Shown one piece after another: positions 41,437-64,000 of a DNA stretch of 64,000 bases; within the stretch, counting starts at the first letter, position 1, and the number at the start of each line of letters is the position of its first letter. The stretch is from the NCBI GenBank assembly GCA_963844965.1, contig CAWJQC010000004.1, forward strand, positions 41,609 through 105,608, in the 5' to 3' direction. The translations under genes and the position numbers were made by a program. The notes below the pieces were generated by a model. It was not told where the DNA came from, searched no databases, and saw only the letters and a list, made by a program, of their open reading frames with translations. This DNA is from an uncultured bacterium (GTDB taxonomy: Bacteria > Patescibacteriota > Minisyncoccia > UBA6257 > 2-01-FULL-56-20).

Positions 41437-43541
41437 TTACCGTTTTTTGCCTTCGATAATCAACTGCGCAATGTTCTGCGGCACTGGCTCATAATGGTCA
41501 AATTCCATCGTGAACGCTCCCCTGCCTTGCGTCATGGAACGCAACTCGGTCGCGTAGCCGAACATTTCCGCGAGCGGAACTTTGGCGTCAATCACTTTCA
41601 CGTTGGGCCGGTCGGAAATTTCCTCAATCCTGCCGCGCTTGGAGTTCAAGTTGCCGCTCACCTCGCCCAAAAATTCTATCGGGATGATAACCTGAAGCTT
41701 CATTATCGGCTCCAATATGACCGGCTTCGCGCGCTTCGCCGCTTCCTGCAGGGCGATGGAGCCAGCAATTTTGAAAGCCGCCTCCGACGAGTCAACTTCA
41801 TGGAAAGAGCCGTCATAGAGCGAAACTTCAAGGTCGGTCATCGGGTAGTGGGCAACGACCCCCTTACTCAATGCTTCCACCACACCTTTTTCCACCGCCG
41901 GGATGAATTCGTTCGGAATGATCCCTCCCTGATATCGTCTATGAAAACAAATCCCTTGCCGCGCTCCAAGGACTTCACGCGCAGCCAGACATGTCCGTAT
42001 TGTCCGCGGCCGCCGGATTGCCTGATATATTTGCCTTCCGCCTCCGCTTCGCCCATAATCGTTTCTTTATAGGCAACCTGCGGCCGCCCCACCGAACCCT
42101 CAACACCGAACTCCCGCTTCATCCTGTCAACAATAATTTCCAGGTGCAACTCGCCCATGCCAGAAATAATCGTCTCGCCAGTTTCCAGGTCGCCCGCCAC
42201 GCGGAAAGTCGGGTCTTCTTCCGCCAAGCGGTGCAGGGCAATGCTCATTTTTTCCTGGTCGGCTTTCGTCTTCGGCTCAATGCGAATGCCGATCACCGGC
42301 TCGGGGAATATGATCTTCTCAAGCACTATCGGCGCGTCGGGACTGCAAAGCGTGTCGCCGGTCGTCGTATTCTTCAAACCGACGATCGCCGCGATATCTC
42401 CGGCATGCACTTCCTCCATTTCTTCGCGGTGGTTGGCGTGCATCCGCACCACGCGGCCGACACGTTCCTGCTGGTCCTTCTTGGAATTCAAAACGTACGT
42501 GCCGCGCTTCAAAACGCCGGAATAATTCCGGAAATAGGTTAAAGTGCCGACGTACGGGTCTGTCGCAACCTTGAAAGCCAGCGCCGAGAACGGCTCTTCG
42601 TCCTTGGGGTGCCGCACGATATCGGCGCCGCTCTTCGGGTCAATGCCCTTAACCGGAGGAAGGTCCGTCGGCGCGGGCAAATATTCCACAACCGAGTCAA
42701 GCATAAATTGCACGCCTTTGTTTTTCAGGGCCGAACCGCAAAGCACCGGCACAATTTTGTTGGCAATAACGGCTTTGCGCAAAACGCGGCGCAAATCTTC
42801 AATGTCAAGCTCAGTACCATCCAAATACTTGGTCATCAAGGCATCGTCATTGTCCACAATGCGTTCCACAAGTTCATGCCGCGCCTTCTTCACGTGCACT
42901 TTCATATTTTCCGGCATCGGAATTTCTGTAATCTTTTCGCCATGTTCACCCTCCGAGCCGTACGCCTTTTCGGTTAAGAGGTCTATCATTCCCACGAATT
43001 CACCCTCAAGGCCGATGTTCAACTGCAAAGGCAGTGCGTTCGGCGTGAGCCGTTCTTTGATTGACTGCAAACTTTTTTCAAAGCTCGCACCCAAGCGGTC
43101 AAGTTTGTTAATAAAGCAAATCCGCGGCACGTGGTACTCATCGGCATAGCGCCAGTTCGTTTCCGACTGCGGCTCAACACCTGCGACGCCATCAAAGACG
43201 ACAACCGCGCCGTCCAAAACGCGGAGCGAACGCTTCACCTCCACCGTAAAGTCAATGTGCCCCGGCGTGTCAATCAAATTTATCATATGCTCAAATTTTT
43301 TGTCGCCCTTGCGGTAAGTCGGAATCCAGAACGCCGTCGTTGCGGCGGAAGTAATCGTAATTCCCCTCTCACGTTCCTGCTCCATCCAATCCATCACCGT
43401 GTCGCCCGTGTGCACCTCGCCGATTTTGTGACTGACGCCCGTATAAAAAAGCACCCGTTCGCTCACGGTGGTTTTGCCGGCATCTATATGGGCGATGATG
43501 CCGATGTTACGGACCTTCTCGACAGGATACATTCTAGGCAT
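41437..43541 (-). CDS. fusA: elongation factor G; single-base frameshift near 41880
   Basis: N-terminal ORF has [17 protein letters not shown] and NKLD. C-terminal ORF (41437-41895) holds domains IV-V. The two overlap at 41868-41895. Confidence 0.85.
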
Positions 43542-46124: not shown

Positions 46125-46222
46125 AACAATAATATCCGAAAACCGCGGTCTTTGCCAATTAAGAAAAAACAAATTAAAATGAGCATGTCGCCCTCGTGGT
46201 GAAACTTGCCCTCCCACCTTTG

Positions 46223-46294
46223 TCCCTGTAGCTCAACGGATAGAGCGTGTGGCTTCGAACCACAAGGTTGCAGGTTCAAATCCTGCCAGGGACG
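46223..46294 (+). tRNA. tRNA-Arg (anticodon UCG), embedded between perfect 13 bp inverted repeats
   Basis: GUCCCUGUAGCUCAACGGAUAGAGCGUGUGGCUUCGAACCACAAGGUUGCAGGUUCAAAUCCUGCCAGGGACG. Flanks are CCCTCCCACCTTT / AAAGGTGGGAGGG. Confidence 0.85.
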
Positions 46295-46327
46295 CAAAGG
46301 TGGGAGGGTGAAGATATCATATGTGGC

Positions 46328-46375
46328 TTCGAACCACAGGTTCCAGGTTCGAGTCCTGGCGAGGGCACACACAAC
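46328..46375 (+). other. partial duplicate of the tRNA-Arg 3' half (anticodon arm through acceptor), att-like repeat
   Basis: UGUGGCUUCGAACCACAGGUUCCAGGUUCGAGUCCUGGCGAGGGCA lies 33 nt after the intact tRNA. Confidence 0.5.
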
Positions 46376-46464
46376 ATTTCGTATCGCGGCATCGTGGGGG
46401 CCGACGCTCTAGCGCGACCCCGAGAGGCCTACCGATACGGAATATCGTCCTCCTTATTTCTCTA

Positions 46465-46716
46465 TTAAGAGCCGGCAAAAATACTTTTGATAAGGCTTGT
46501 AATGCCGCCTGCTATCAGCACGATCACAAAACCGACTGCCGCATACGTAAGGGTCTTCTTCCCTTTCGAAAATTTTTCAGGATCGCCAGCCGCCGTCATC
46601 ATTTGAAACCCGCCGACAAGCACCATTATACTTGTGAGCGGCGCTGCAATATCGTAAAAAAGAAATCCCGCCACACTATTCGCGACGGACACCAAGCTGC
46701 CCCCCCATTCGTACAA
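46465..46716 (-). CDS. small two-TM protein resembling TrbC/VirB2-type conjugative pilins
   Basis: LVSVANSVAGFLFYDIAAPLTSIMVLVGGFQMMTAAGDPEKFSKGKKTLTYAAVGFVIVLIAGGITSLIKSIF. The pattern matches VirB2/TrbC pilins by eye only. Confidence 0.35.
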   Translation of the reverse strand: MYEWGGSLVSVANSVAGFLFYDIAAPLTSIMVLVGGFQMMTAAGDPEKFSKGKKTLTYAAVGFVIVLIAGGITSLIKSIFAGS

Positions 46717-46883
46717 TTTGGATCGAACGGATTAAAAAGTTGGTTGGGAGGGCACGCGGCAAAAGCTAACTTCGCGACGGTTAAGGCGCTGACTGTTATT
46801 AAAATCTTTGTTGTGCGGCGGATAATATGCATATGGATTATTATAGCATACGAGATAGCGTGGCAGAAGCCCATTTTGTTTAG

Positions 46884-48278
46884 CTATTTCTGCAAGCTCA
46901 GAATTTTATTCCTGAACGTCAACTTACTCTTGAAGCAAGATAGCAATTCGCGTTTCTCGACCGTGCTGCCCTTTTTGAGAAGATATTTTGCGTACGTTTT
47001 AAGGTCAATTTCTTTAGTGGCCGCTTTCGATCCTTCTCCCAAGACATCGTTCGCGAATTTGCGATATCGTTCCATCTCGTCTTCGAATTTCTTCTGCATC
47101 CCAATCTCACTGATATCCATCTCGTCAATGATAGCGAGAAGTTGAGCGATCAATTCCTCTTCGCGAATGTATCCGCACTTGCAATCCTTATCTTTCGAGC
47201 GTGAGCATCCATAGTACACGTACCGCGCCGTCGTTCCATCCTTGTGCGCCTTATATTTCTCGCACGCACTGATGCCCGATCCGCATAGGCCGCACGAGAT
47301 CAGTTTCGTAAACGAAAATTCCTTTATCTCCGACCTGATGACAAAATCTCGGTGCAGCTGCTCCTGTACTTTATCGAACAGCTCCCGCGAAATGATTGCT
47401 TCGTGCTTGCCGCTGTACCAGTTACCGCTCTTCAGTGGATACTCAAAGATGCCGCAGTAAAATGGATTTTTGAGGATGATATAAATATTGGATAACGAAA
47501 GCACTTTCCCATTCTTTGTTCTGAATTTGATTTCCGACTTCAGCCAATGATAAAGCTTCCGGCCCGACCATTGTTCGTCGGCGACTTTCTGGAGCATTTG
47601 CTTGATGACGGGCGCTCGCAGGGGATCAATGATAACTTCACAAGGACGGTCGGTGCTCTTCTCGTTAAGATACCCTGTCGGTGCGATAGACGGACGCAAA
47701 CCTTGTTCGCACCGCATCCGTAATCCGCGCTTCACGTTTTCCGATTTGTTATCATTCTCAAGTTTCGCTTGGCTGCACAAAATCATCAACATGAATTTCT
47801 CGCTCGGCGAGTTCGTGAATTTCTGGCTGAAGGTTCTGATCTCGATAAGTAATTTTTGATCCATCAAGTCCACCAAGCCGCCAAGGTCGCCCGCGTTGCG
47901 GCTCAAGCGATCCGGCGCCCATGTAAGGATACCGTTGAATTCGCCGGAACGAATATCAATAAGCAACTCGTTAAAAATTTTTCGCTGGCCGACAGCTTTT
48001 GCGGAATGGCTTTCCTTTCTAACTTCGGCGATCTCAAGGTTATCGCGCTCGGCGATTTTCAGCATCTCCTTTATCTGACTATCAATGGAAAGCACTTGCT
48101 GTTCCTCGCTCTCCGTACTTTTCCTCGCATAGAGGCAGTATTTTATTTTTATCGCTTCGGCCTTTGTCGCAGAAACGCCCGACTGATCCCAGCCCTTTGG
48201 TATATTTGTTATTTTCTCCATACCTAAGGGATGCCGCAACGGCGGAAGGAGTCCAGAGCATCCTTGTCGGTAACTCAA
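46884..48278 (-). CDS. large serine recombinase (integrase)
   Basis: N-terminal resolvase domain with YARKSTESEEQ (catalytic Ser), recombinase domain, Zn-ribbon CGLCG..C and coiled-coil C-terminus. Confidence 0.8.
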   Translation of the reverse strand: MSYRQGCSGLLPPLRHPLGMEKITNIPKGWDQSGVSATKAEAIKIKYCLYARKSTESEEQQVLSIDSQIKEMLKIAERDNLEIAEVRKESHSAKAVGQRKIFNELLIDIRSGEFNGILTWAPDRLSRNAGDLGGLVDLMDQKLLIEIRTFSQKFTNSPSEKFMLMILCSQAKLENDNKSENVKRGLRMRCEQGLRPSIAPTGYLNEKSTDRPCEVIIDPLRAPVIKQMLQKVADEQWSGRKLYHWLKSEIKFRTKNGKVLSLSNIYIILKNPFYCGIFEYPLKSGNWYSGKHEAIISRELFDKVQEQLHRDFVIRSEIKEFSFTKLISCGLCGSGISACEKYKAHKDGTTARYVYYGCSRSKDKDCKCGYIREEELIAQLLAIIDEMDISEIGMQKKFEDEMERYRKFANDVLGEGSKAATKEIDLKTYAKYLLKKGSTVEKRELLSCFKSKLTFRNKILSLQK

Positions 48279-53623: not shown

Positions 53624-56305
53624 ATGAGTGGGATAAAAATAAATCTTTCTCTCAGCGAAATCCCAGGCATCGGCCCGCGTTTTCTGGAACGGCTGGGAAA
53701 ACTCGGCATAAAAACCGTCCGTGATCTCATTTATCATTTTCCGGCCCGCTACGAGGATTTCTCCCAGATATACAAAATTTCCGACGTTGAGCCGGGGGAA
53801 CAGGTAACAATACGTGGCGTTGTTGAAGACACCAAACTGCGGCGGACTTGGAGAAAACACATGACAATCGCCGAAGCCCTGATCCGCGACGATTCCGGAA
53901 CGATACGCGCCATCTGGTTCAACCAACCATATGTTTTGAACACTCTGCGGGTCGGGCGCACGGCGAATTTCGCAGGCAAAATATCCATATCGGACGAGGA
54001 CGAAATTTATTTGAGCCACCCGGCTTATGAAATCGTCGGCAGTCGGGAGTCGGGAACGGAGAAGCAAGAAACAAAACATACAGCGCGGCTCGTCCCCATT
54101 TATCCCGAAACGCGCGGCCTCACATCCAAGGGGTTGAGATATCTGATCCAGCCAATTCTGAAAAACAGCGAACAGCTGGAGGAATGGCTGCCGCCGGAAG
54201 TTCTGCGCGAAAATAATTTTCCCGAAATAAACCTTGCGCTCAGATCCATACACTTCCCCGAAAAAACCGAGGATGCTCTTGTCGCGAAAAAACGCTTCAC
54301 TTTTGAAAACCTGTTCCTGCTGCAACTCGCCAATCTTGAACAAAAATTGAAACTCGCGCGCGAAAAAGCGCCAGTGATCAAAACCGACATAGAACACCTG
54401 AAAAAAATGATCTCGGAACTGCCATACGAACTCACGTTTTCGCAAAAGAAATCATTGTGGGAAATCATCCAGGACCTCGCCAAAAAACAGCCGATGAACC
54501 GCCTGCTCCAGGGCGACGTGGGCTCCGGCAAGACGGTTGTCGCGGCGCTCGCCGCGGTAATTACCGCGGAAAACGGGCTGCAGACCGCGTTTATGGCGCC
54601 AACCGAGGTTCTCGCGAGACAGCATTTTGAAACATTGAAAAAATTATTCGCCGGAATTCCCTCGATCCATCAACCCGTAGTTGGGCTTCTCACGTCAAGC
54701 GAAGCAAAAATCCTCTACGCGACAGACCTTGAATCAAAAATCAAAAAACCGGAGTTGCAGGAAAAAATAAAAAACGGCGAGGTAAAAATAGCCATCGGCA
54801 CGCACGCTTTGATACAAAAAGACGTGGCGTTCGGCAATCTTGCCTTTATCATCATTGACGAACAGCATAGATTCGGCGTCTCACAACGAGCTGCGCTCGT
54901 TCGCGGACAGACGCAGAATGATAATACGCGGACAGACGCTGAACAACTACTATACGAAAAAACGACGTTTGAGATAAGAAAAAGTCTGTTTGAGGTGAGA
55001 AAACAACTGGGCCTTGGTCATAAAGAAGTGGTGTATCAGAAAGCATTGGAGGAGGAGTTCAAGAAATCCGGTGTAATATTTGAGAAAGAAAAGAAAATTC
55101 CTGTCGTTTATAACAAGAAAAAGATTGGCGTTTATCAACCGGATTTTGTCATAGATAATGAAGTAATTTTGGAACTTAAGGCTCTTCCCTTTATCGGCGG
55201 CATCGAAAAAAAACAGCTGTGGAATTATTTGAGGGGTTCGGATTACAAACTCGCGCTTATGGCAAACTTTGGACCGGAAAGATTATCCATAGAGCGGGTA
55301 GTATACGATATTGCGCGGAGTCGGCGGCTGTCAGCGTCCGGTCAGCAACTGTCCGCGCCTATCCCCCACCTCCTCTCAATGTCCGCCACGCCAATCCCAC
55401 GCACGCTCATGCTCACCGTCTTCGGCGATTTGGATATATCGCTCATCACCGAACTTCCCGCCGGCAGAAAAAATATCGTAACAAAAATAATCCCCCCACG
55501 GGGCAGGAGCGAAGCCTATGAATTCATCCGCGGCGAAGTGAGGGCCAGCCGGCAGGTTTTTGTCATCTGCCCCCGCATTGACAAACCGCAGACAGGCGCA
55601 GACCACACGCAGACAAACGCAGACAAGACACAGACAGACGCAGACAATTTTCAGCGGCTGTCTGCGTCAAGTCAGCGACTGTCCGCGTTAAGTCCACGTA
55701 AGTCCGCGTTAGTGTGGGAAGTAAGATCCGTGAAAGAAGAATTTGAAAAATTATCCAAGAAAATTTTTCCGGATTTGCGCGTCGCCATGCTCCACGGCCA
55801 GCTCAAGCCAAAAGAAAAAGCGGGTATCATGAAGGACTTCCGCAACTACAAAATAGATATTCTCGTTTCAACTTCCGTCGTGGAAGTTGGCGTGGACGTG
55901 CCGAACGCAACAATAATGATGATTGAAGGCGCCGATCGCTTCGGGCTGGCTCAGATCTACCAATTCCGCGGACGCGTGGGGCGCGGCGAACACCAATCCT
56001 ATTGCTTCCTGTTCACGGATTCGTCCGCCAAAACTACGCGCGAGCGGCTGCAGGCCGTCCTTGAAGCCAAGAACGGCTTTGAGCTCGCCGAGAAGGACCT
56101 GAAGATCCGCGGTCCCGGCGAATTCCTCGGCACGGCGCAGACCGGCTTTCCCGACACGGCGATGAGCGGCCTCATGAACCCGGAGCTCGTGAAAGCAAGC
56201 CGCGAAGCGGCGGCAAAAATCGTCCAAAAAGATCCGCTTTTCAAAAATTATCCGCTCCTGAAAACCAAATTAAACGAGTTCCGGAAGGAAATCCACTTGG
56301 AGTAG
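53624..56305 (+). CDS. recG: ATP-dependent DNA helicase RecG (893 aa) carrying two in-frame insertions
   Basis: Wedge/OB N-terminus; helicase motifs GSGKTVVA, IIIDEQHRFGV, SATPIPRTL, TSVVEVGVDVPNA, QFRGRVGRG; intact ORF. Confidence 0.85.
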   Translation: MSGIKINLSLSEIPGIGPRFLERLGKLGIKTVRDLIYHFPARYEDFSQIYKISDVEPGEQVTIRGVVEDTKLRRTWRKHMTIAEALIRDDSGTIRAIWFNQPYVLNTLRVGRTANFAGKISISDEDEIYLSHPAYEIVGSRESGTEKQETKHTARLVPIYPETRGLTSKGLRYLIQPILKNSEQLEEWLPPEVLRENNFPEINLALRSIHFPEKTEDALVAKKRFTFENLFLLQLANLEQKLKLAREKAPVIKTDIEHLKKMISELPYELTFSQKKSLWEIIQDLAKKQPMNRLLQGDVGSGKTVVAALAAVITAENGLQTAFMAPTEVLARQHFETLKKLFAGIPSIHQPVVGLLTSSEAKILYATDLESKIKKPELQEKIKNGEVKIAIGTHALIQKDVAFGNLAFIIIDEQHRFGVSQRAALVRGQTQNDNTRTDAEQLLYEKTTFEIRKSLFEVRKQLGLGHKEVVYQKALEEEFKKSGVIFEKEKKIPVVYNKKKIGVYQPDFVIDNEVILELKALPFIGGIEKKQLWNYLRGSDYKLALMANFGPERLSIERVVYDIARSRRLSASGQQLSAPIPHLLSMSATPIPRTLMLTVFGDLDISLITELPAGRKNIVTKIIPPRGRSEAYEFIRGEVRASRQVFVICPRIDKPQTGADHTQTNADKTQTDADNFQRLSASSQRLSALSPRKSALVWEVRSVKEEFEKLSKKIFPDLRVAMLHGQLKPKEKAGIMKDFRNYKIDILVSTSVVEVGVDVPNATIMMIEGADRFGLAQIYQFRGRVGRGEHQSYCFLFTDSSAKTTRERLQAVLEAKNGFELAEKDLKIRGPGEFLGTAQTGFPDTAMSGLMNPELVKASREAAAKIVQKDPLFKNYPLLKTKLNEFRKEIHLE
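54903..55357 (+). mobile_element. in-frame insertion inside recG encoding a GxxExxY-type PD-(D/E)xK domain, bounded by inverted repeats
   Basis: Left end is a tandem CGCGGACAGACGC (54903, 54927). Right end is GGCTGTCAGCGTCC...CAGCAACTGTCCGCG (55349-55357 is the reverse complement of CGCGGACAG). Encoded segment: GLGHKEVVYQKALEEEFKKSGVIFEKEKKIPVVYNKKKIGVYQPDFVIDNEVILELKA...LMANFGPERLSIERV. Confidence 0.5.
55588..55712 (+). mobile_element. second, cargo-less in-frame palindromic insertion of the same repeat family inside recG
   Basis: CAGACAGGCGCAGACC...GACAGACGCAGACAATTTTCAGCGGCTGTCTGCGTCAAGTCAGCGACTGTCCGCG. Translates as QTGADHTQTNADKTQTDADNFQRLSASSQRLSALSPRKS between conserved RecG blocks. 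Confidence 0.45.
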
Positions 56306-56571: not shown

Positions 56572-59017
56572 CTACTGCTCCATATGACCGACAAGGGTGC
56601 ATGTATAAAAGTTACCAGTGCATTGGGATGAATTAGTAACATCCCAACAAGTTGAATAAGTCTCCAGCGCGCCACTACAAGGAGTGGTATTAGCGCATGA
56701 ACTGTTGTAGTAACGAATATAAGTCATATACTGCGGGCAGAAGTAAATCGGCGTCCCGCCTGTAACTTTAAGAGTGCCGGGAATGATGACGTTGCCGTTT
56801 GCTAGAACCTGTATAGCTGCTCCGGTTGTAGTAGCTGTACCAGTATTCGGCATACTGCCGCCAATACCGACGTTGCCGGCATAGTTGATGACTAATTTAT
56901 TTGATTCTGCCGCACTAGGATAATTTCCCACCATAAGCATGGCGCCCTGATTAACATCGCCCACATCGAGCAGCACCGCATCCGCATTGGTCGTAGCCGC
57001 GGTGCCGTAGAACGTGCCGGTATTGGTATCCCTGTTCTGCTCGAACTGGGTGCCGTAATCACCGGTGTTATACAAGAACGAATAGGTGGGATTACTAAAA
57101 TCGCTGTACATCTCAAGGCCGGGGCCGGTACCGGCAGTATTTGAATATGCATAAAATTGATAGTTGGCGGGCGCCGCCGCTCCCACCCCGATTCCGGAGG
57201 TGAATAAACCTCCTCCAGTTACCGTCAGTTTCTGGGTCGGCGCCGTATTCCCGATGCCGACGTTGCCGGAGGAATTCCAAATACCGGTGCCAGGCATCGT
57301 AACGTTGCCAGTAAAGGTCGGGCTCGCTAAAAGCGCCGCTCCGGTAACCTGCGCTACCCCGTAGTCACCAGATGCCGCCACCACGGCTCCGGTTCCGCCA
57401 AATACCGAGGTGACGCCGCCGCTCGGCCAAGCCGTGATGCAATTCGCCCCGGAGATGCAATATTGAGTGGCGTTTGCGGTAACCGTTGACGTACAGAGCG
57501 TACCCTCCGCCTGAGTTTGTGAAATACCCACCGTAGCCGCCGGAGTTGGTGGCTAATCCATAAACTCCTACGCCGTTACCTGCCGCTGACTGTCCGGCAA
57601 CCCCTACCCAGTAAGAAGCGCCGACCTGTCCGCCGAGAATCCCATTCGTTGTGGCGTTGCTATTATTTCCCGTTACCGAGCCGACCCATGATGAATTGAC
57701 GGCGCTCGTGAAACTGCCTACGCCAGCAACAACCAACGGATATGCCGGCGTCGTCGTCCCGATGCCGACGTTGCCGTTCGTGATGGAGAAATATGGACCA
57801 CCCCCCATCCCAGTGCCAAGCGCCAAATTGAGGCCATAAGATTGTGACGTCAAATCAGCGTATGTAAATGCTCCGTTGCTGGTGGTGAACTTTATCCAAT
57901 CTACGTTTGACCCGTTTGTATTGTCTAGCCGTAAGGTAGACGTACTTCCACTCTGAATATCAAGTTTTGCGACCGGCGCCGTGTTCCCGATGCCGACGTT
58001 GCCGTTGTTATTTATAAACAAGGCGGGTGACGCGCCGGATGAGTCAGAACCCTGAGTCAAAAAGGCCATTGGAGAACCGTTACTGCCGATCCGGGCCCAG
58101 TTCGCAACTGCTGCCGGTCCAAGCTGTAGCAAGGCATCGGTACCGTTAGATGTCAAGTCAAACTTGGCGAATTTTGACCCGTTCACGACATGCAACGTCG
58201 TTGCCGGCGACGCCGTCCCGATGCCGACGTTGCCGCCATATGCAAGCGTCATTATTTGGGAGTACCAACTGCTGGGGTTCTGATACCCAATCGTCAAGAC
58301 CGAATTATCTGACGCTGGTGCAAAAACATACCCATTATTACTGCCAGCCATATCGCGGAGCTTGAAGGCTCCAAAGACATCAAGTGTATTTTGTGGTGAC
58401 GGCGTCCCGATGCCGACCGAGCCCGAGAAATACCCGCCGCCGTAGACGGAGAGGGCCTGCGGCAAGTTGCTGGCGGAGGATGTGGTAACGCCCAGAGCGG
58501 AAGAAACAAACACACTGTGGGGGAACCCGTAGGGAACGCCGGAATCGGCCTCTAGAGAATTGAACACCGCGGGCGTGACATAGCCGGCGTTGACGGTCCC
58601 GTTAAAATTGCCGTGGATCGTGCCGTTCACGTCAAGCTGGTAGCCAGGCGACGCCGTCCCGATGCCGACAGAACCGTCATTGCGCACGACAAGTATGGGC
58701 GACGAATTCGGATAAAGGATCTTCAATGTGTAATTCGCGGCATCAGCGGACGAAGAAGCAACGATGAGGAGTTTGGTTTCCGGCAGAGGCGTGGGCGTAC
58801 CAACGCCCAGATTCCCAGCCGCATTAGTGCTTACCGCTCCCGAACCGAAACCGGGGGTGGGAGGAGGAGAGGCAAACGCGTAGTAGGTAGTAGGTAGTAG
58901 GTAGTAGGTAGTAGCGAGAATGACGAAAAACAAAACGTGCGGCGCAAAACTCGGACGCACACCGTAAAACTTGCGGCGGAGCTTTTGCTGTTTTTGGAAC
59001 AAATCTGCGTCCATCAT
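56572..59017 (-). CDS. large repetitive surface protein (GNVGIGT-type Gly-rich repeats, Cys-rich C-terminal domain); frameshift near 57400-57530
   Basis: Two overlapping ORFs (57365-59017 and 56572-57531) in the same direction. Repeated NGNVGIGTTAP / SYGLNLALGTGMGGGPYFSITNGNVGIG units. Probable signal peptide MRPSFAPHVLFFVILATTYYLLPTTYYAFA from a GTG start. Confidence 0.5.
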
Positions 59018-59040
59018 AATAATTTACTACCTACTACCTA
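58879..59040. repeat. long inverted repeat (GTAGTAGGTAGTAGG x5 versus CTACCTACTACC) bracketing the start and signal-peptide coding region of the surface protein gene
   Basis: 58879-58913 GTAGTAGGTAGTAGGTAGTAGGTAGTAGGTAGTAGC and 59017-59040 CTACCTACTACCTACTACCTACC. Confidence 0.5.
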
Positions 59041-59251
59041 CTACCTACCGCTTTTAATTGTTTCGGGGCGACAATCTCATAGCTTTATTATATAAGAACA
59101 GGGAAAGATATGTAGAAAGGGGTGTGCATAGGCGCGAAAACTGCCCGAGCGGCGGCCGCAAATTTCCCGGCCATCCGGGATATAAAAAAGGCTCTCGCGA
59201 GGAATTGCGAATTGCGAATCCTCACGAGAGCCAAACATACCGGAGGGGAAT

Positions 59252-59959
59252 CTAGTGGCCGACGATGGGTGGAAGACCGGCCTGGTAGCGGCGGTAATTC
59301 CCCATGTACCGGTCCGCCACCTGAATATTCCGCACGCCGTACCAAACGTGAACCGTGCTAAGGTAACCGGCAAAGCCGATGCTTGCGAGACGCTCGGCCC
59401 TCACCATTCTCCTGCCCCACTTATGTCCCCCCCATTTATGCTCTGTCCAGCGAGGGATAGCCGAAGAAAAGTAGGAAAAAACGACATCGAACGCCGAGGC
59501 GCTCCCTAACACCCCAGCAATATTGCGATTGCCAAATTGGGTATATAGGGAGTCCGTCTCACGGGGGCCCTGCTGGCTAGCATAACGCAAACCGTTGCTA
59601 GCGACGTACTCTGGAATAAAGGGTGGCGTAGAGAGGGAACGGAACGTGGTTATGTTGTCAAACGCAAATGGCCCGCGCTCAACACCCCACATCCAAGCCT
59701 GTGTCCTCTCAAGCTTGCTCTGGTCCCGGTTTAACTTGCCGCCAGGCCAAGCCATAACCCTAAACACCTTATCAAAGGTTGATGGCTCAACCGGTGCCGC
59801 CGAACGCAAGGGCGAGATAGCGGGTGCGAGTGCCGGTGCAGACGCGGCGGATGCCGCCACGGGCGTTGACGCTAAGGGCAGTTCGGTAAGACCGTCTGCC
59901 GGAAACGCGCGAACCGAAATGATTGTCAAGATTGTCAACAAAAGCACCAGTCGCTTCAT
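59252..59959 (-). CDS. secreted hypothetical protein
   Basis: Signal peptide MKRLVLLLTILTIISVRAFPA. A palindromic TTGCGCAAAGCAATTTGG / CCAAATCGCTTTGCGCAA site lies upstream. Confidence 0.4.
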   Translation of the reverse strand: MKRLVLLLTILTIISVRAFPADGLTELPLASTPVAASAASAPALAPAISPLRSAAPVEPSTFDKVFRVMAWPGGKLNRDQSKLERTQAWMWGVERGPFAFDNITTFRSLSTPPFIPEYVASNGLRYASQQGPRETDSLYTQFGNRNIAGVLGSASAFDVVFSYFSSAIPRWTEHKWGGHKWGRRMVRAERLASIGFAGYLSTVHVWYGVRNIQVADRYMGNYRRYQAGLPPIVGH

Positions 59960-60097
59960 AACGACCTCCTCAAAAAGATTTAATTTAATTGCGCAAAGCA
60001 ATTTGGCTACTCCCAAGAATAACCAAATCGCTTTGCGCAAGCAATATATTCATTTTTCAAGATACTTGCCTATCTATGCTAATTATAGCACAAATAA

Positions 60098-60700
60098 ACA
60101 ACCTGTCAACCCCCACCTTTTTCCGAAAAGGTGGGGGTCAAGTGGCCGCGGCGGCTGACCCGCTGAAGCGACGATACCCTACAACTCATAAATCTCATCT
60201 CGCTTGCCTATTTTGAGTATATAAATTGCGCCATTTCTAACGTCAAATACCAACCTATAATCGCCCACGCGAAATCTGAACTCCCCGCCGCGGTTGTCAG
60301 CCAAACGCTTGGCAAACCTCAACGGATTATCCTCTGACGCATAAATGCGCATCTTCTTTGCTTTGCGATGCGCACTTGAACTTCTCTCGGCAGGGATTCC
60401 AACTGCTTAGCCGCCCGCTTGGCATAGAAAATCTTCGTTACAATCCCAACTTCTTAAACAGCTTATCCTGCGATATAGTTTTTTTTGCCTTGATTTCTTT
60501 TCTCGCTTCGCGGACATCCAAAATATGCGCGAGGTAGCCAAGCAGGGCGCCGAAGCGAGCATCCGTTTTCCTCAAACGCTCGTATTCTTGTTTTGGTATA
60601 GTAACCGTGGTCATATAAGTGCATTATAGTAAACCGGCGGCGGATATCAACCCCCACACCAAACGAGGACTTTCCGGGTCCCGCGCCGAAGGCGCATGTC
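60098..60700. repeat. about 0.6 kb direct repeat, copy 1 (degenerate RelE-like toxin plus intact antitoxin)
   Basis: About 97% identical to 62117-62715. Toxin start codon is ATG to ACG, plus a 5 bp indel. Terminal hairpins CCCCCACCTTTTTCCGAAAAGGTGGGGG and CCCCCACACCAAACGAGGAC. Confidence 0.7.
60438..60614 (-). CDS. orphan antitoxin (59 aa) of the degenerate repeat copy
   Basis: MTTVTIPKQEYERLRKTDARFGALLGYLAHILDVREARKEIKAKKTISQDKLFKKLGL, identical to the copy-2 antitoxin. Confidence 0.45.
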   Translation of the reverse strand: MTTVTIPKQEYERLRKTDARFGALLGYLAHILDVREARKEIKAKKTISQDKLFKKLGL

Positions 60701-60737
60701 CTCGTTAGGATTCTCGATAGGAATTGCCGGTGCGACA

Positions 60738-60956
60738 TTACAACAGAGAAACAAACTGCTCCGGTGCAAGTTCGGCATCACGTAGTATTTTGCGAAGCAG
60801 AGAAACATCCACTGCCTTATAGTTCGGCACCGTTACGGATTTCTTGCCGGGACAGGACAAACGAATATGGCTGCCGCGCTGGCGAACTTCGCGATAACCG
60901 AACTTTGCCAAAGCAGAAATAATCTTGCGGCCGGAGATAACAGGCAGTTTAGACAT
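60738..60956 (-). CDS. hicA: HicA-family toxin (YcfA-like mRNA interferase)
   Basis: GYREVRQRGSHIRLSCPGKKSVTVPNYKAVDVSLLRKILRDAEL. Confidence 0.6.
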   Translation of the reverse strand: MSKLPVISGRKIISALAKFGYREVRQRGSHIRLSCPGKKSVTVPNYKAVDVSLLRKILRDAELAPEQFVSLL

Positions 60957-60962
60957 GACGAG

Positions 60963-61214
60963 CTATACGGCAATTGTATGTAAGCTGATTTCCTGCGGCT
61001 TGTAATCCTGCAAAATTTGCCTGGACTGCTTTTCTTCCAAAATAAGCATTATAACCTCTCGGATATTGCGGAGCGCCTCGTCAATCGTCTTGCCCTGCGC
61101 ATAACATCCTTCAAAAACAGGGCATTCAACAACATAAAACCCGCTCTCTCCTTTTTCGGCGAGGAGCGGCAATTGCCGGCCGCGGCCTATAAATTTTGCT
61201 CTTGTTCTTGCCAT
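60963..61214 (-). CDS. hicB: HicB-family antitoxin
   Basis: GFYVVECPVFEGCYAQGKTIDEALRNIREVIMLILEE (HicB/UPF0150 RNase H-like fold pattern). Confidence 0.6.
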   Translation of the reverse strand: MARTRAKFIGRGRQLPLLAEKGESGFYVVECPVFEGCYAQGKTIDEALRNIREVIMLILEEKQSRQILQDYKPQEISLHTIAV

Positions 61215-61493
61215 AGTGAAATAATACCACAACCCTTTAGGCGGTCAAGTGAAATTGGTAGCCAAAATCGCCCTGCCACACTAAAACCCCTTTAAATTCT
61301 TCCAGCAAGCAAACTGCCCGCGCTTTTCCGCGCGGGCTTTTTTTAAATCCCCGCTGAATACCCAGCCGAGACGTGGCGGAGACGAAACAGTGAGATATCT
61401 TTCTTTCCTCGCTTCGCAAGAAATCTTGCCGTTCCTCCGCGAGCCAATATCTACGGCCCCCGGCTGGAGGGATGAAATGAAATGGACGCTCAA

Positions 61494-61688
61494 CTATTTC
61501 TGTTTAATCTCTCTAATACCGAGGTCCCGGCAGATTTTCTTTGCCAAAAATTCATTGATTTCGCTATGGCGGGGCACCGTAGACGAACGTCTGACTTTGG
61601 GGTTAAAAAAGACGCTGTGCTTGGCGCCTTCCCGAACAAAAACACACCCCTCATGCTCAATGTGGCAAATTAAAACAACTCGCTTCAT
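61494..61688 (-). CDS. hicA: HicA-family toxin, second pair
   Basis: GAKHSVFFNPKVRRSSTVPRHSEINEFLAKKICRDLGI. Confidence 0.55.
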   Translation of the reverse strand: MKRVVLICHIEHEGCVFVREGAKHSVFFNPKVRRSSTVPRHSEINEFLAKKICRDLGIREIKQK

Positions 61689-61691
61689 TCA

Positions 61692-61907
61692 TCAAACTGT
61701 AAGCAGCTGCCGCGTCAACTTCTGTTTGCCGGCCTCGGCATCAGCCAGCGCCCGGTTGGTTTCCAAAATTAGCCGAAGCGCTTCTTTAAGATTTTCTTTT
61801 ACTTCCTTCACGCTTTTCCCTTGAGTATTTACCCCGGGCACTTCCTCTATCCAGCCGACATACCATTTACCGCTTTTTTTAAACACGGCTGTAAATTTGT
61901 ATTTCAT
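61692..61907 (-). CDS. hicB: HicB-family antitoxin, second pair
   Basis: MKYKFTAVFKKSGKWYVGWIEEVPGVNTQGKSVKEVKENLKEALRLILE. Confidence 0.55.
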   Translation of the reverse strand: MKYKFTAVFKKSGKWYVGWIEEVPGVNTQGKSVKEVKENLKEALRLILETNRALADAEAGKQKLTRQLLTV

Positions 61908-62203
61908 GACTGCCATACATTTAAGATAATCCCAAAGCATGTAGCTGTCAACTCCTCTCAACTCCCGAGAAAACCCAGATGGCGAGCTTCTCCCTGCCTC
62001 GATAGGGTAGAAAAACAACTCAAACAGCCCAACGAAATTCGTTGGGCTGGATTTTTTTAACCAATGGCGTCACCCGCCGTTGAATTCCTTAATATCTTTT
62101 GGCGAACACCGTTTAAACTACCTGTCAACCCCCACCTTTTTTCCGAAAAGGCGGGGGTCAAGCGGCCGCGGCGGCTGACCCGCTGAGCTGAAGCGACGAT
62201 ACC

Positions 62204-62458
62204 CTACAACTCATAAATCTCATCTCGCTTGCCTATTTTGAGTATATAAATTGCGCCATTTCTAACGTCAAATACCAACCTATAATCGCCCACGCGAAAT
62301 CTGAACTCCCCGCCGCGGTTATCAGCCAAACGCTTGGCAAACCTCAACGGATTATCCTCTGACGCATAAAAGCGCATCTTCTTCGCGATGCGCATTTGAA
62401 CTTCTCTCGGCAGGGATTCCAACCGCTTAGCCGCCCGCTTGGCATAGAAAATCTTCAT
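62204..62458 (-). CDS. RelE/ParE-family type II toxin
   Basis: MKIFYAKRAAKRLESLPREVQMRIAKKM...EFRFRVGDYRLVFDVRNGAIYILKIGKRDEIY. Confidence 0.7.
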   Translation of the reverse strand: MKIFYAKRAAKRLESLPREVQMRIAKKMRFYASEDNPLRFAKRLADNRGGEFRFRVGDYRLVFDVRNGAIYILKIGKRDEIYEL

Positions 62459-62634
62459 TACAATCCCAACTTCTTAAACAGCTTATCCTGCGATATAGTT
62501 TTTTTTGCCTTGATTTCTTTTCTCGCTTCGCGGACATCCAAAATATGCGCGAGGTAGCCAAGCAGGGCGCCGAAGCGAGCATCCGTTTTCCTCAAACGCT
62601 CGTATTCTTGTTTTGGTATAGTAACCGTGGTCAT
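62458..62634 (-). CDS. cognate antitoxin (59 aa); stop overlaps the toxin ATG (TAATGA)
   Basis: Same sequence as 60438-60614; coupled to the toxin. Confidence 0.5.
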   Translation of the reverse strand: MTTVTIPKQEYERLRKTDARFGALLGYLAHILDVREARKEIKAKKTISQDKLFKKLGL

Positions 62635-62946
62635 ATTAAGTGCATTATAGCAAACCGGCGGCGGATGTCAACCCCCACACCAAACGAGGACGCGCGCCTT
62701 CGGCGCAGGACCCGGAAAGTCCTCGTTTGGTGTGGGGGTAAATTATGCCGAAAAAGCCGGAAGGAAAGATGCGATCTATGTTTCTCCCGCAAGAATACCC
62801 CCGCCGCAGGCGGGGGATGAATTGCGGTTCGAGAAACATAAACCCCGCCGATGGCGGGGTGAACTACCACCTAACATGCTGCATGTGCTAAGTATTTCGT
62901 GCGCAGCACGGCAGTTGAGATACCACCGCTGTGAGGCGGTGGTAGT

Positions 62947-64000
62947 TCATTTCAGAAGAGCGTCAACTTTTTCTTGGAGCGCGGCGTTCTGCGCCTGAAG
63001 AGCGCTGATCTCTTGTTGCTGCTCCTTGATGGATTCTATCATCGGCGCGATAAGCCCAGTATAATCCAGACCAAGGGTTCCGCTCGCGTCAGTTTCCACC
63101 AACTGCGGGAAAACCGTCTGTACATTCTGCGCGGTTAAACCGAGCTGCTCTCCACTGCCCATCAGTTTTGTATCTTTCCATTCAAAGGAAACCGGCGTCA
63201 GTAACTCAAGCTCCGCAAGCGAACCCGACAGTGGAACTATATTCTTCTTCAAACGCTCGTCGGAGCTATTTATCCACTGCCCAGCATTGTTTGTATACTC
63301 GCCGTGGGCTCCCTGAAAGTCATACGTACTGCCGGAACCATAGACGCCGATTGCAGCAGTTGAAAACACCCCATACCCTGCGGGATTACCGAAGTATCCA
63401 GCGGAACCGTTCGCGCCCGCGGTATCCGAATATCCTTCCACCCCAACCCCAGTACCAGCGTTGTAGCCATAGACGGCGGGAAGACCATTACCAGTACCGT
63501 AGCCATAGACCCCATACCCAGTCGCACCAGCAGTGCCATAGACACCATACATAGAGCCGGTGCCATAAATCCCTGCCCCAGCTTGCCCGGCGCCACCGAC
63601 GCTTAATGTTGACGCCGGTGCCGTCGTCCCGATGCCGACGTTGCCGTTCGTGATGGAGAAATATGGACCACCCCCCATCCCAGTGCCAAGCGCCAAATTG
63701 AGGCCATAAGATTGTGACGTCAAATCAGCGTATGTAAATGCTCCGTTGCTGGTGGTGAACTTTATCCAATCTACGTTTGACCCGTTTGTTTTGTCTAGCC
63801 GTAAGGTAGACGTACTTCCACTCTGAATATCAAGTTTTGCGACCGGCGCCGTGTTCCCGATGCCGACGTTGCCGTTCGTGATGGAGAAATATGGACCACC
63901 CCCCATCCCAGTGCCAAGCGCCAAATTGAGGCCATAAGATTGTGACGTCAAATCAGCGTATGTAAATGCTCCGTTGCTGGTGGTGAACTTTATCCAATCT
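62947..64000 (-). CDS. tail-fibre-like repetitive protein with C-terminal peptidase S74 intramolecular-chaperone domain; partial, 5' end beyond the window
   Basis: C-terminal SSDERLKKNIVPL...LNPVSFEWKD... (S74 SDxRxK motif) plus coiled-coil. GNVGIG repeats. Shares identical 260 bp modules with the gene at 57365-59017. Confidence 0.6.
   Translation of the reverse strand, partial: DWIKFTTSNGAFTYADLTSQSYGLNLALGTGMGGGPYFSITNGNVGIGNTAPVAKLDIQSGSTSTLRLDKTNGSNVDWIKFTTSNGAFTYADLTSQSYGLNLALGTGMGGGPYFSITNGNVGIGTTAPASTLSVGGAGQAGAGIYGTGSMYGVYGTAGATGYGVYGYGTGNGLPAVYGYNAGTGVGVEGYSDTAGANGSAGYFGNPAGYGVFSTAAIGVYGSGSTYDFQGAHGEYTNNAGQWINSSDERLKKNIVPLSGSLAELELLTPVSFEWKDTKLMGSGEQLGLTAQNVQTVFPQLVETDASGTLGLDYTGLIAPMIESIKEQQQEISALQAQNAALQEKVDALLK

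Follow-up and report, generated by a model that had tools for sequence, protein, structure and literature searches.

Members of a dispersed palindromic mini-element family at a partly duplicated toxin-antitoxin locus of an uncultured Patescibacteriota bacterium

A 64,000-nucleotide (nt) stretch of DNA from an uncultured bacterium of the Patescibacteriota (GTDB lineage 2-01-FULL-56-20; GenBank assembly GCA_963844965.1, contig CAWJQC010000004.1, positions 41,609 to 105,608), referred to here as the window, contains a toxin-antitoxin (TA) locus in which one operon and two hairpins, A and B, are present twice. We consider it likely that this locus is a group of TA operons that includes a recent duplicate with a dead toxin, and that its hairpins are copies of a dispersed family in bacteria of the candidate phyla radiation (CPR), one that resembles the miniature transposable elements with inverted repeats (MITEs). 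The anatomy of the locus and its gene families are clear, and hairpin B belongs to an element family that displays target-site duplications, in-frame copies inside genes and both orientations of its loop.

The 19-nt arm sequence of the element, CCCCACACCAAACGAGGAC, was found at 23 loci in a scan of one genome per species. Nearly all of these loci belong to CPR metagenome-assembled genomes, with representatives of Nealsonbacteria, Parcubacteria, Minisyncoccales, Saccharibacteria and Jorgensenbacteria, and up to five loci occur in a single genome. At each locus, the 19-mer forms the left arm of a palindrome of ~70-86 nt. The element is laid out as CCCCCACACCAAACGAGGAC, a loop of 30, 33, 36 or 45 nt made up of a GC mini-hairpin and an A/T-rich tail, and GTCCTCGTT(A/C)TGGTGTGGGGG. 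The family termini are CCCCCACACCA...TGGTGTGGGGG, with the conserved ends CCCCCAC(ACCA)...(TGGT)GTGGGGG, and most members measure 60-90 bp. A metagenome scan with the pattern CCCCCACACCA-N38-68-TGGTGTGGGGG returned at least 120 loci, and 128 elements of 60-90 nt were present among the matches listed. The family appears to be common across the Patescibacteria/CPR. Rfam 15 gave no match for the hairpins of the window and of 16 related loci at the gathering threshold, nor for positions 59900-63000 at E-values up to 1. Nothing containing the element sequence, or linking CPR with MITEs or with Rickettsia palindromic elements (RPEs), was found in the searchable literature, and CPR goes unmentioned in a review of prokaryotic MITEs from 2024 (PMC10969869). 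The family therefore appears to be undescribed, though elements of its kind (MITEs and RPE-like elements) are known.

The inner stem of the element varies between copies while its pairing is kept. A regular-expression scan of the loci recovered further copies with compensating inner stems (GGGGGC/GCCCCC, GAGCGA/TCGCTC and AAGGAT/ATCCTT). Across 121 matches aligned to the model, double changes were seen in 6/6 inner-stem pairs with 94% pairing, and the covariation score was 0.259, compared with 0.071 after shuffling and at most 0.042 with slid partners; the alignment was model-fitted and held both strands of each element, so these counts lean towards structure. In the AACG-type subfamily, exactly one arm carries an extra base in 71/72 copies (CCATAACG versus CCAAACG), and because one arm is bulged, the arms can be oriented independently of the loop. 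The GC mini-hairpin lies beside the unbulged arm in 28 AACG-type copies and beside the bulged arm in 13. The same loop-tail subtypes are found in both orientations, so during the family's evolution the loop has turned round between its arms on more than one occasion. As for conservation, the element exceeds its flanks in some orthologous pairs: those at L069 4077-4144 and L103 1147-1214 are identical at 68/68 positions with flanks 78% identical, and those at L009 and L016 are 97% identical with flanks at 87-89%; other pairs show the opposite, and no general claim is made.

Target-site duplications and empty sites indicate that the family is mobile. Exact 4-nt repeats flank 17/32 copies in the genome loci, whereas over 5000 trials shuffled pairings averaged 4.6 and never exceeded 12. 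They also flank 62/127 metagenome copies among the matches listed (shuffled mean 11.6, maximum 24). The commonest flanking repeats are TTTA and TAAA (16 each) and CAAG/CTTG and TCAA/TTGA (7 each). Five loci align to element-free homologous genes after in-silico removal of the element and one repeat, and the gap is visible in L094/L015. The features of MITEs found here are terminal inverted repeats, small size, the lack of a transposase gene, many dispersed copies, target-site duplication and presence/absence at homologous sites.

Twelve copies in the genome loci are located inside long open reading frames (ORFs), and the reading frame remains open through the element. The host genes encode UvrA (at least two copies), LeuRS, TsaD (two copies), a protein-isoaspartate methyltransferase, a FAD-dependent reductase and glycosyl-transferase/hydrolase-like proteins. 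In a Nealsonbacteria locus (L005, 4994-7827), uvrA holds at least two in-frame copies and four palindromes lie within 3 kb; the two copies in tsaD are found at L015 5213-5422. When LeuRS was compared with its Thermus counterpart (PDB 1h3n), the element appeared as a precise 25-residue insertion, and an element with a B2-like loop is in frame in a 535-aa membrane glycosyltransferase. The element length plus 4 nt equals 75, 78, 81 or 90 in 12/12 ORF-embedded copies of the genome loci, and it is divisible by 3 in 32/36 ORF-embedded metagenome copies among the matches listed (p = 7e-12). This length constraint suggests that the intragenic inserts are translated. A peptide search with a 52-aa concatenate of element-encoded segments returned no candidates and was uninformative. 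Frame-preserving copies inside coding genes, as in RPEs, are thus present at the level of the family.

In the window, the repeat and its hairpins occupy the following positions (all coordinates are those of the window, and these features have no strand assigned):

60095-60670: direct repeat copy 1, ending with the left arm of element B1
62114-62691: direct repeat copy 2
60110-60137: hairpin A1, a perfect 28-nt palindrome, CCCCCACCTTTT-TCCG-AAAAGGTGGGGG
62129-62157: hairpin A2, an imperfect copy of A1 (one additional T and a T-to-C change)
60651-60707: element B1, truncated, with left arm 60651-60670 and flipped loop 60671-60697
62672-62738: element B2, 67 nt long and complete, a palindromic mini-element that covariance model R1 scores at 61.3 bits on the plus strand, with perfectly complementary arms 62672-62691 and 62719-62738 and loop 62692-62718 containing a GC mini-hairpin

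The two repeat copies, aligned with MAFFT and BLAST, are in direct orientation and measure ~0.58 kb each. Their alignment spans 583 columns with 560 matches, 11 mismatches and 12 gap columns, which corresponds to 98.1% identity without gaps and 96.1% when gaps are counted. An earlier note on this DNA, made from the sequence alone, had described two 0.6 kb copies of about 97% identity; the repeat is real, with its limits now redrawn. The 5 bp indel given there for copy 1 exists as an insertion in the toxin gene and is one of four indels (1, 5, 5 and 1 nt). The note had placed a perfect hairpin at the start of each copy and a 20 bp inverted repeat at the end of each; the former holds for copy 1 and not for the imperfect A2, and the latter is complete in copy 2 only. 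A search of the 64-kb window for further copies of the unit, which the note had proposed genome-wide, yielded no third copy. The repeat begins ~15 nt ahead of hairpin A, its homology stops inside the right arm of element B, and the two copies bracket two HicB-HicA pairs, as the note had said.

The full inverted repeat of element B, with arms of 20-21 bp, is present in copy 2 alone, where the hairpin folds with -31 kcal/mol (z = -7). The right arm of B1 is reduced to the 10 nt GTCCTCGTTA (60698-60707), beyond which no homology to the flank of copy 2 was detected. The arm 20-mer occurs 3 times in the window and 0 times in 100 shuffles. The 27-nt loops of B1 and B2 match at 24/27 positions when one is reverse-complemented and at 7/27 directly, so the reversal claimed in the earlier note is confirmed. 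The same was seen with model R1, which favours the minus strand for B1 (25.3 bits, against 13.7 on the plus strand), so that B1 and B2 match on opposite strands. B1 and its flipped loop also occur in a contig of the Logan assembly (L001). B1 combines an unbulged left arm with the start of a bulged-type right arm and a loop opposite to that of B2; this arm asymmetry shows that it is the loop that flipped and not the whole element. B2 is among the rare family copies with perfectly complementary arms. B1 and B2 both lie between genes, and adding 4 to their length gives 71, which is not divisible by three.

The left arm of B is located at exactly the same base in both copies, and the repeat homology passes through it. 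This suggests that one element predates the duplication and was later changed twice. The loop of one copy would have been inverted between the inner 9-bp segments of the arms, after or during the rearrangement, and the other copy would have lost its 1-nt arm bulge. Both changes would fit strand switching or recombination within the hairpin. Small hairpin-associated inversions in plastid DNA were reportedly described by Kelchner and Wendel in 1996, and template switching at quasi-palindromes is said to go back to Ripley in 1982 and to the Lovett laboratory. The likeness to these lies in the inversion of a loop between short arms (B1) and in the conversion of an imperfect to a perfect palindrome (B2), with the difference that here both states recur in a mobile-element family. 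The family shows this flip repeatedly, and the inverted loop of the window is a single example of it. B1 and B2 are the only pair found here of recently diverged paralogues that differ by a loop flip and the loss of a bulge, and they adjoin a break point inside the element, providing a dated example of palindrome-driven change.

Hairpin A is situated 3' of the toxin gene, in the position of a terminator. It ends in CCCCCAC/GTGGGGG, which are the seven terminal bases of the family, and both A1 (TCAA at 60106-60109 and 60138-60141) and A2 are flanked by TCAA on either side. A 26-nt palindrome with TCAA/TCAA flanks was also found in a Nealsonbacteria genome (L019). From these shared ends and flanks, hairpin A is a probable short relative of the element family that now occupies a terminator position, and it probably terminates transcription of the toxin-antitoxin genes.

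All genes of the region are on the minus strand. In the order of transcription, antitoxin 2 and toxin 2 are followed by A2, HicB2, HicA2, HicB1, HicA1, B1, antitoxin 1, the toxin remnant, A1 and the gene at 59959-59252. The genes and predicted promoters, each on the minus strand, are as follows:

62644-62671, minus: promoter of TA copy 2, TTGACA-16-TATAAT, 12/12 hexamer matches, directly abutting B2
62458-62634, minus: antitoxin copy 2, 58 aa
62204-62458, minus: toxin copy 2, intact, RelE/ParE-type, 84 aa (PF05016)
61923-61951, minus: HicB2 promoter
61692-61907, minus: HicB/UPF0150-like antitoxin 2, 71 aa (PF21748, 26.3 bits, slightly below the cut-off of 27.3)
61494-61688, minus: HicA toxin 2, 64 aa (PF07927, 34.9 bits, cut-off 27)
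61221-61248, minus: HicB1 promoter
60963-61214, minus: HicB-like antitoxin 1, 83 aa (PF15919, 30.4 bits, cut-off 27)
60738-60956, minus: HicA toxin 1, 72 aa (PF07927, 55.5 bits, cut-off 27)
60623-60650, minus: promoter of TA copy 1, TTGATA-16-TATAAT, abutting B1
60438-60614, minus: antitoxin copy 1, 58 aa, nucleotide-identical to copy 2
60179-60438, minus: toxin copy 1, disabled (ACG start, +5 nt frameshift, six substitutions)
60082-60109, minus: sigma-70-type promoter, TTGACA-16-TATAAT, 12/12 hexamer matches, for the gene at 59959-59252

Toxin 2 matched the Pfam ParE_toxin profile PF05016 with 35.7 bits (cut-off 23), and the nearest solved structures are of the RelE type (PDB 2khe, 9g12, 3g5o and 3bpq). 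Its ATG overlaps the stop codon of the antitoxin as TAATG. The antitoxin had no match in Pfam, NCBIfam or PDB, and only two relatives were found in 5.8 billion proteins (62% and 57% identity). Both relatives directly precede a ParE-family gene, one of them with the same TAATG overlap. Judged by the profile match, the translational coupling and the conserved pairing, these genes are a predicted type II toxin-antitoxin pair of the RelE/ParE superfamily, and the antitoxin is outside any described family. No exact-protein record was found for the 84-aa toxin, and NCBIfam and PADLOC gave no matches for the six toxin-antitoxin proteins. At the loci of both antitoxin relatives, too, there is a hairpin upstream of the promoter, and a terminator hairpin follows downstream; these hairpins are unrelated in sequence to those of the window, which indicates that hairpins do not travel with the toxin-antitoxin genes. 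At the locus of the closest relative (L002, 647-1143), the pair is followed by two small overlapping genes of 80 and 85 aa, probably a further toxin-antitoxin module, and these genomes may commonly hold such modules in arrays.

The toxin of copy 1 begins with ACG (CGT on the plus strand at 60436-60438) and contains a +5 nt insertion near 60356-60361. The ACG start is also present in the independent Logan contig L001. The RelE/ParE-like toxin with its small antitoxin, present twice, and the change of the toxin start from ATG to ACG beside an intact antitoxin are as the earlier note reported, except that the antitoxin has 58 aa and not 59. The toxin differs by 7 events in 255 nt and the antitoxin by 0 changes in 177 nt, a marginal and weak contrast (Fisher p = 0.045). 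To call the orphan antitoxin an anti-addiction remnant is speculation. As an intact cognate pair is found 2 kb away, decay of the toxin after a recent duplication explains the pattern without such a role, and a duplicated operon with a decayed toxin is in itself ordinary. Degenerate toxins next to intact antitoxins are common in type II systems (PMC7354431, PMC12548467). The locus resembles RelBE/ParDE and HicAB systems in its small overlapping antitoxin and toxin genes with a promoter of their own and in the families PF05016 and PF07927 (PMC7354431, PMC12548467). It differs from them in the undescribed family of the antitoxin, and the order in both Hic pairs is HicB followed by HicA; toxin and antitoxin activities are predicted. 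The two Hic pairs show no more than a distant relationship.

Palindromes and promoters are closely associated at this locus. Five promoter sites with 10-12/12 hexamer matches were found on the minus strand, and three of them abut the GGGGG of a palindrome (A1, B1 and B2). In these three, the palindrome is followed on the minus strand by TTGA(C/T)A, a 16-nt spacer and TATAAT. The promoter at 60082-60109 has its -35 box inside repeat copy 1 and its -10 box in the unique flank. At A2, ~15 nt of the spacer were copied and no -10 box follows. Since TTGA is a favoured duplicated target, insertion at a TTGACA -35 box would recreate the box, and the promoter would survive.

These features can be understood if the locus is a minus-strand run of four type II toxin-antitoxin operons, each with its own near-consensus promoter, among which copy 1 would be a recent duplicate of the copy 2 operon with its toxin knocked out. 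The duplicated segment would already have carried both palindromes, A on the 3' side of the toxin and B immediately 5' of the -35 box. Homology between the copies stops within the right arm of B, and the rearrangement by which the second copy came to lie beside the HicBA pairs would therefore have broken within the B palindrome. The pattern of promoters and spacers, the complete B2 and the truncated B1 suggest that the outer junctions are ancestral and the inner ones derived; we infer the order of events accordingly from these junctions. Two origins would fit alike: a circle carrying the toxin-antitoxin and HicBA operons may have integrated by homologous recombination, or the operon may have been duplicated locally through a break in the palindrome, with the HicBA pairs inserted later.

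The earlier note had instead implied a picture of a self-contained toxin-antitoxin cassette with hairpins of its own, inversion of the loop by cruciform recombination, and an antitoxin kept as an anti-addiction module. The start of the repeat just before hairpin A, its end in hairpin B, the truly inverted loop and the contrast between an unchanged antitoxin and a changed toxin agree with this picture. Yet in other genomes hairpin B turns up in hundreds of unrelated settings where toxin-antitoxin genes are absent; as a copy of a dispersed family with target-site duplications, found in unrelated genes and intergenic regions of many CPR genomes, it is not a recombination site specific to the cassette. 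In addition, the relatives of the pair carry different hairpins, the cognate pair 2 kb away makes antitoxin 1 redundant and not protective against an incoming element, and the contrast between the two genes is statistically marginal. We regard the cassette as improbable. A Campbell-type integration, in which circular DNA with a homologous toxin-antitoxin operon and two HicBA pairs recombined into a resident single-copy operon, deserves more weight, though we still consider it rather unlikely. In that case, the 2-4% divergence and the differing state of element B would separate donor from recipient and would not reflect change after duplication. The ancestral look of the outer junctions (the left flank of copy 1 completes a 12/12 promoter and copy 2 has the full B), the odd inner junctions (B1 is truncated, and to the left of A2 no more than 15 nt of the promoter spacer remain) and a loop that differs at 3/27 positions, against ~2% in the rest of the repeat, are all in its favour. 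However, no relative with a single-copy locus, or with the toxin-antitoxin and HicBA genes on another replicon, was found in a search of small reach (three database members in the antitoxin family and 0 matches in Joint Genome Institute (JGI) metagenomes for the 20-mer specific to the loop and arm of B), and the large serine recombinase at 46884-48278 lies 12 kb off, with housekeeping genes between.

An assembly artefact, the condition under which the earlier note would have withdrawn its duplication, is unlikely, and two contigs produced by a different assembler largely speak against it. A 1.8-kb Logan contig of run ERR10755942 also contains the exact antitoxin sequence. This contig (L001) is 100% identical to 60405-62216 and joins copy-2 variants, both HicBA pairs, the flipped B1, antitoxin 1 and the ACG codon; a second contig (L027) equals 59079-60138, linking the unique left flank to the perfect A1, and ends exactly at the end of the palindrome. 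The artefact would require that two strain variants of one toxin-antitoxin locus were falsely joined and that the loop orientation was an assembler's choice. The source is probably a metagenome-assembled genome, copies ~2-4% apart are at a typical strain distance, and assemblers break at palindromes, as L027 does at the end of A1. Nevertheless, a separate de Bruijn contig links the variants of both copies, including the flipped loop and ACG, at full identity, and the other ties the left flank to A1. Moreover, the usual k-mers exceed the 21-nt arms in length, which leaves the loop orientation to be set by the reads. Such a false join is very hard to credit. Nor do we find it at all probable that B1 and B2 are independent insertions of two loop isomers at the same target after the duplication, without any flip in situ. 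Both loop forms are dispersed, TCAA/TTGA-type targets are preferred and no flip was seen in 10 orthologous pairs, all of which would suit independent insertion; against it, the left arm is at the same base in both copies with continuous homology, and the two loops belong to one rare subtype, 24/27 identical and without a JGI metagenome match.

Several observations weigh against the duplication of an operon that carried mobile palindromes. The Logan contigs cover the inner junctions and the left outer junction, with B2 and the right outer junction outside them, and the Logan assembly probably derives from the same reads as the source record. B2 is flanked by TCAA and TAAA, a 3/4 match and no exact target-site duplication, and a scan of the window with R1 found just four copies, all at the toxin-antitoxin locus. 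In ~0.9 Mb of loci, a small sample and hence a weak negative, no larger transposase-bearing element and no parent insertion sequence with the same ends was found. The leaning of the covariation counts has been given above. Between orthologous element pairs of other genomes, 0/10 loop flips were seen, and as all ten pairs keep their orientation, flips would be rare. The pair in the window is the only candidate for a flip in situ and coincides with the truncation of B1, so the flip may belong to the same event, as a by-product of the rearrangement. Hairpin A could also be a plain intrinsic terminator of the operon that evolved in place and is unrelated to the family, a possibility that we take seriously while holding it the less probable one. 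It lies 41 nt past the toxin stop, has a 12-13 bp stem and a moderately T-rich tail, and A1 scores only 17.9 bits with R1; short forms of this type are rare, with 5 in ~1 Mb, 2 of them with flanking repeats. The seven shared terminal bases, the TCAA/TCAA flanks of both copies and the Nealsonbacteria counterpart with the same flanks speak for membership in the family.

Palindromic elements in Rickettsia were reportedly first described by Ogata et al. in 2000. They resemble the CPR family as multi-copy palindromes of a reduced-genome, host-dependent lineage that occur in frame in housekeeping genes, and their inserts in genes are described as translated (PMC10969869). The two show no sequence relationship. 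Members of the CPR family are shorter (60-90 bp versus ~100-150 bp), have clear 4-nt duplications and termini of 11-13 nt conserved across many CPR lineages, and are distinguished by an arm bulge of 1 nt that is conserved and by loops in two orientations. Among bacterial MITEs, the Correia, ERIC and RUP elements share terminal inverted repeats, target-site duplication and the lack of a transposase, and they too are dispersed, often beside promoters or terminators and sometimes within genes (PMC10969869, PMC3184786, PMC2229807). The CPR element differs in being one long hairpin with a covarying inner stem, in having no partner insertion sequence found, and in that about a quarter to half of its copies are intragenic and in frame.

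Repetitive extragenic palindromes (REP/BIME), which are mobilised by RAYT transposases, are likewise short, GC-rich and possible terminators, and an extrahelical base in their imperfect stem matters (PMC3733652). A REP/RAYT system was rejected for the present family, as the termini are CCCCCAC with no GTAG or CGTC tetranucleotide head, by which REPs are defined, and many copies are intragenic (PMC3733652). The 4-nt duplications of the CPR family, moreover, are not made by HUH-type single-strand transposition. IS200/IS605-type elements were set aside because the palindrome reaches the ends of the element and 4-nt duplications are frequent. An integron cassette (attC) was also rejected, given that the hairpins between the operons bear no relation to one another and TGTCAAC at the boundary departs from RYYYAAC. 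A scan of 10 proteins from the neighbourhood found no integrase, the only recombinase being the large serine recombinase 12 kb off.

Some of the hitherto unexplained insertions of 20-30 residues in CPR proteins are accounted for by the elements. Their palindromes can further act as break points of short-read assemblies, as illustrated by the contig that ends exactly at one. After Rickettsia, the CPR would be a second reduced-genome, host-dependent lineage with selfish in-frame palindromes in housekeeping genes. A bolder hypothesis, which we think doubtful, is that the CCCCCAC...GTGGGGG palindromes form a mobile system of the whole CPR superphylum that is handled as hairpins and not as double-stranded transposon ends. 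The near-invariant bulge, the covarying inner stem and the two loop orientations suggest such handling of a folded single strand, and the two orientations can be likened to the flip/flop pattern of parvoviral terminal repeats. If this were true, the elements would be agents of CPR genome evolution that add 20-30-aa peptides to essential proteins and insulate promoters, and they would create break points that duplicate or shuffle small operons such as the toxin-antitoxin cassette.

Further hairpins and repeats were observed around the locus. Terminator-like hairpins with T-runs are located on the plus strand at 61316-61345 and 62025-62058, upstream of each HicB gene, where the local genes are all on the minus strand. 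Three GC-rich hairpins, CCCCCGCC..GGCGGGGG, ACCCCGCC..GGCGGGGT and TACCACCGC..GCGGTGGTA, are found in 62798-62944, between B2 and the stop of a gene with a Peptidase_S74 domain; Rfam yields only weak sub-threshold noise for them. The neighbouring genes at 62947-64000 and 57365-59017 encode repeat proteins with GNVGIGT motifs, one of which ends in the Peptidase_S74 intramolecular-chaperone domain, as phage tail fibres do. Inside the S74 gene, a 158-nt segment is doubled with 98% identity (63615-63772 and 63843-64000). A perfect 24-nt inverted repeat built of GTAGTAGGTA-type units is present at 58883-58913 and 59025-59048. One arm is inside the 5' end of the 550-aa ORF at 57365-59017 (minus strand), where it codes for TTYYLLPTTYY, and the other is in the leader of this ORF, so that the arms enclose the start codon. 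The repeat could sequester the ribosome-binding site or mark an invertible segment.

More distant parts of the window showed three other features. In the RecG helicase at 53624-56305, the DEAD and Helicase_C domains are separated by a PD-(D/E)XK nuclease domain (PDDEXK_3, residues 447-558). The large serine recombinase at 46884-48278 (minus strand) adjoins a tRNA-Arg (46222-46295) and a partial tRNA-like match (46307-46359), and the region 46222-48278 may be the edge of an integrated element. The EF-G gene at 41437-43541 looks split, with a 557-aa ORF that stops in domain IV and an overlapping 152-aa ORF in another frame.

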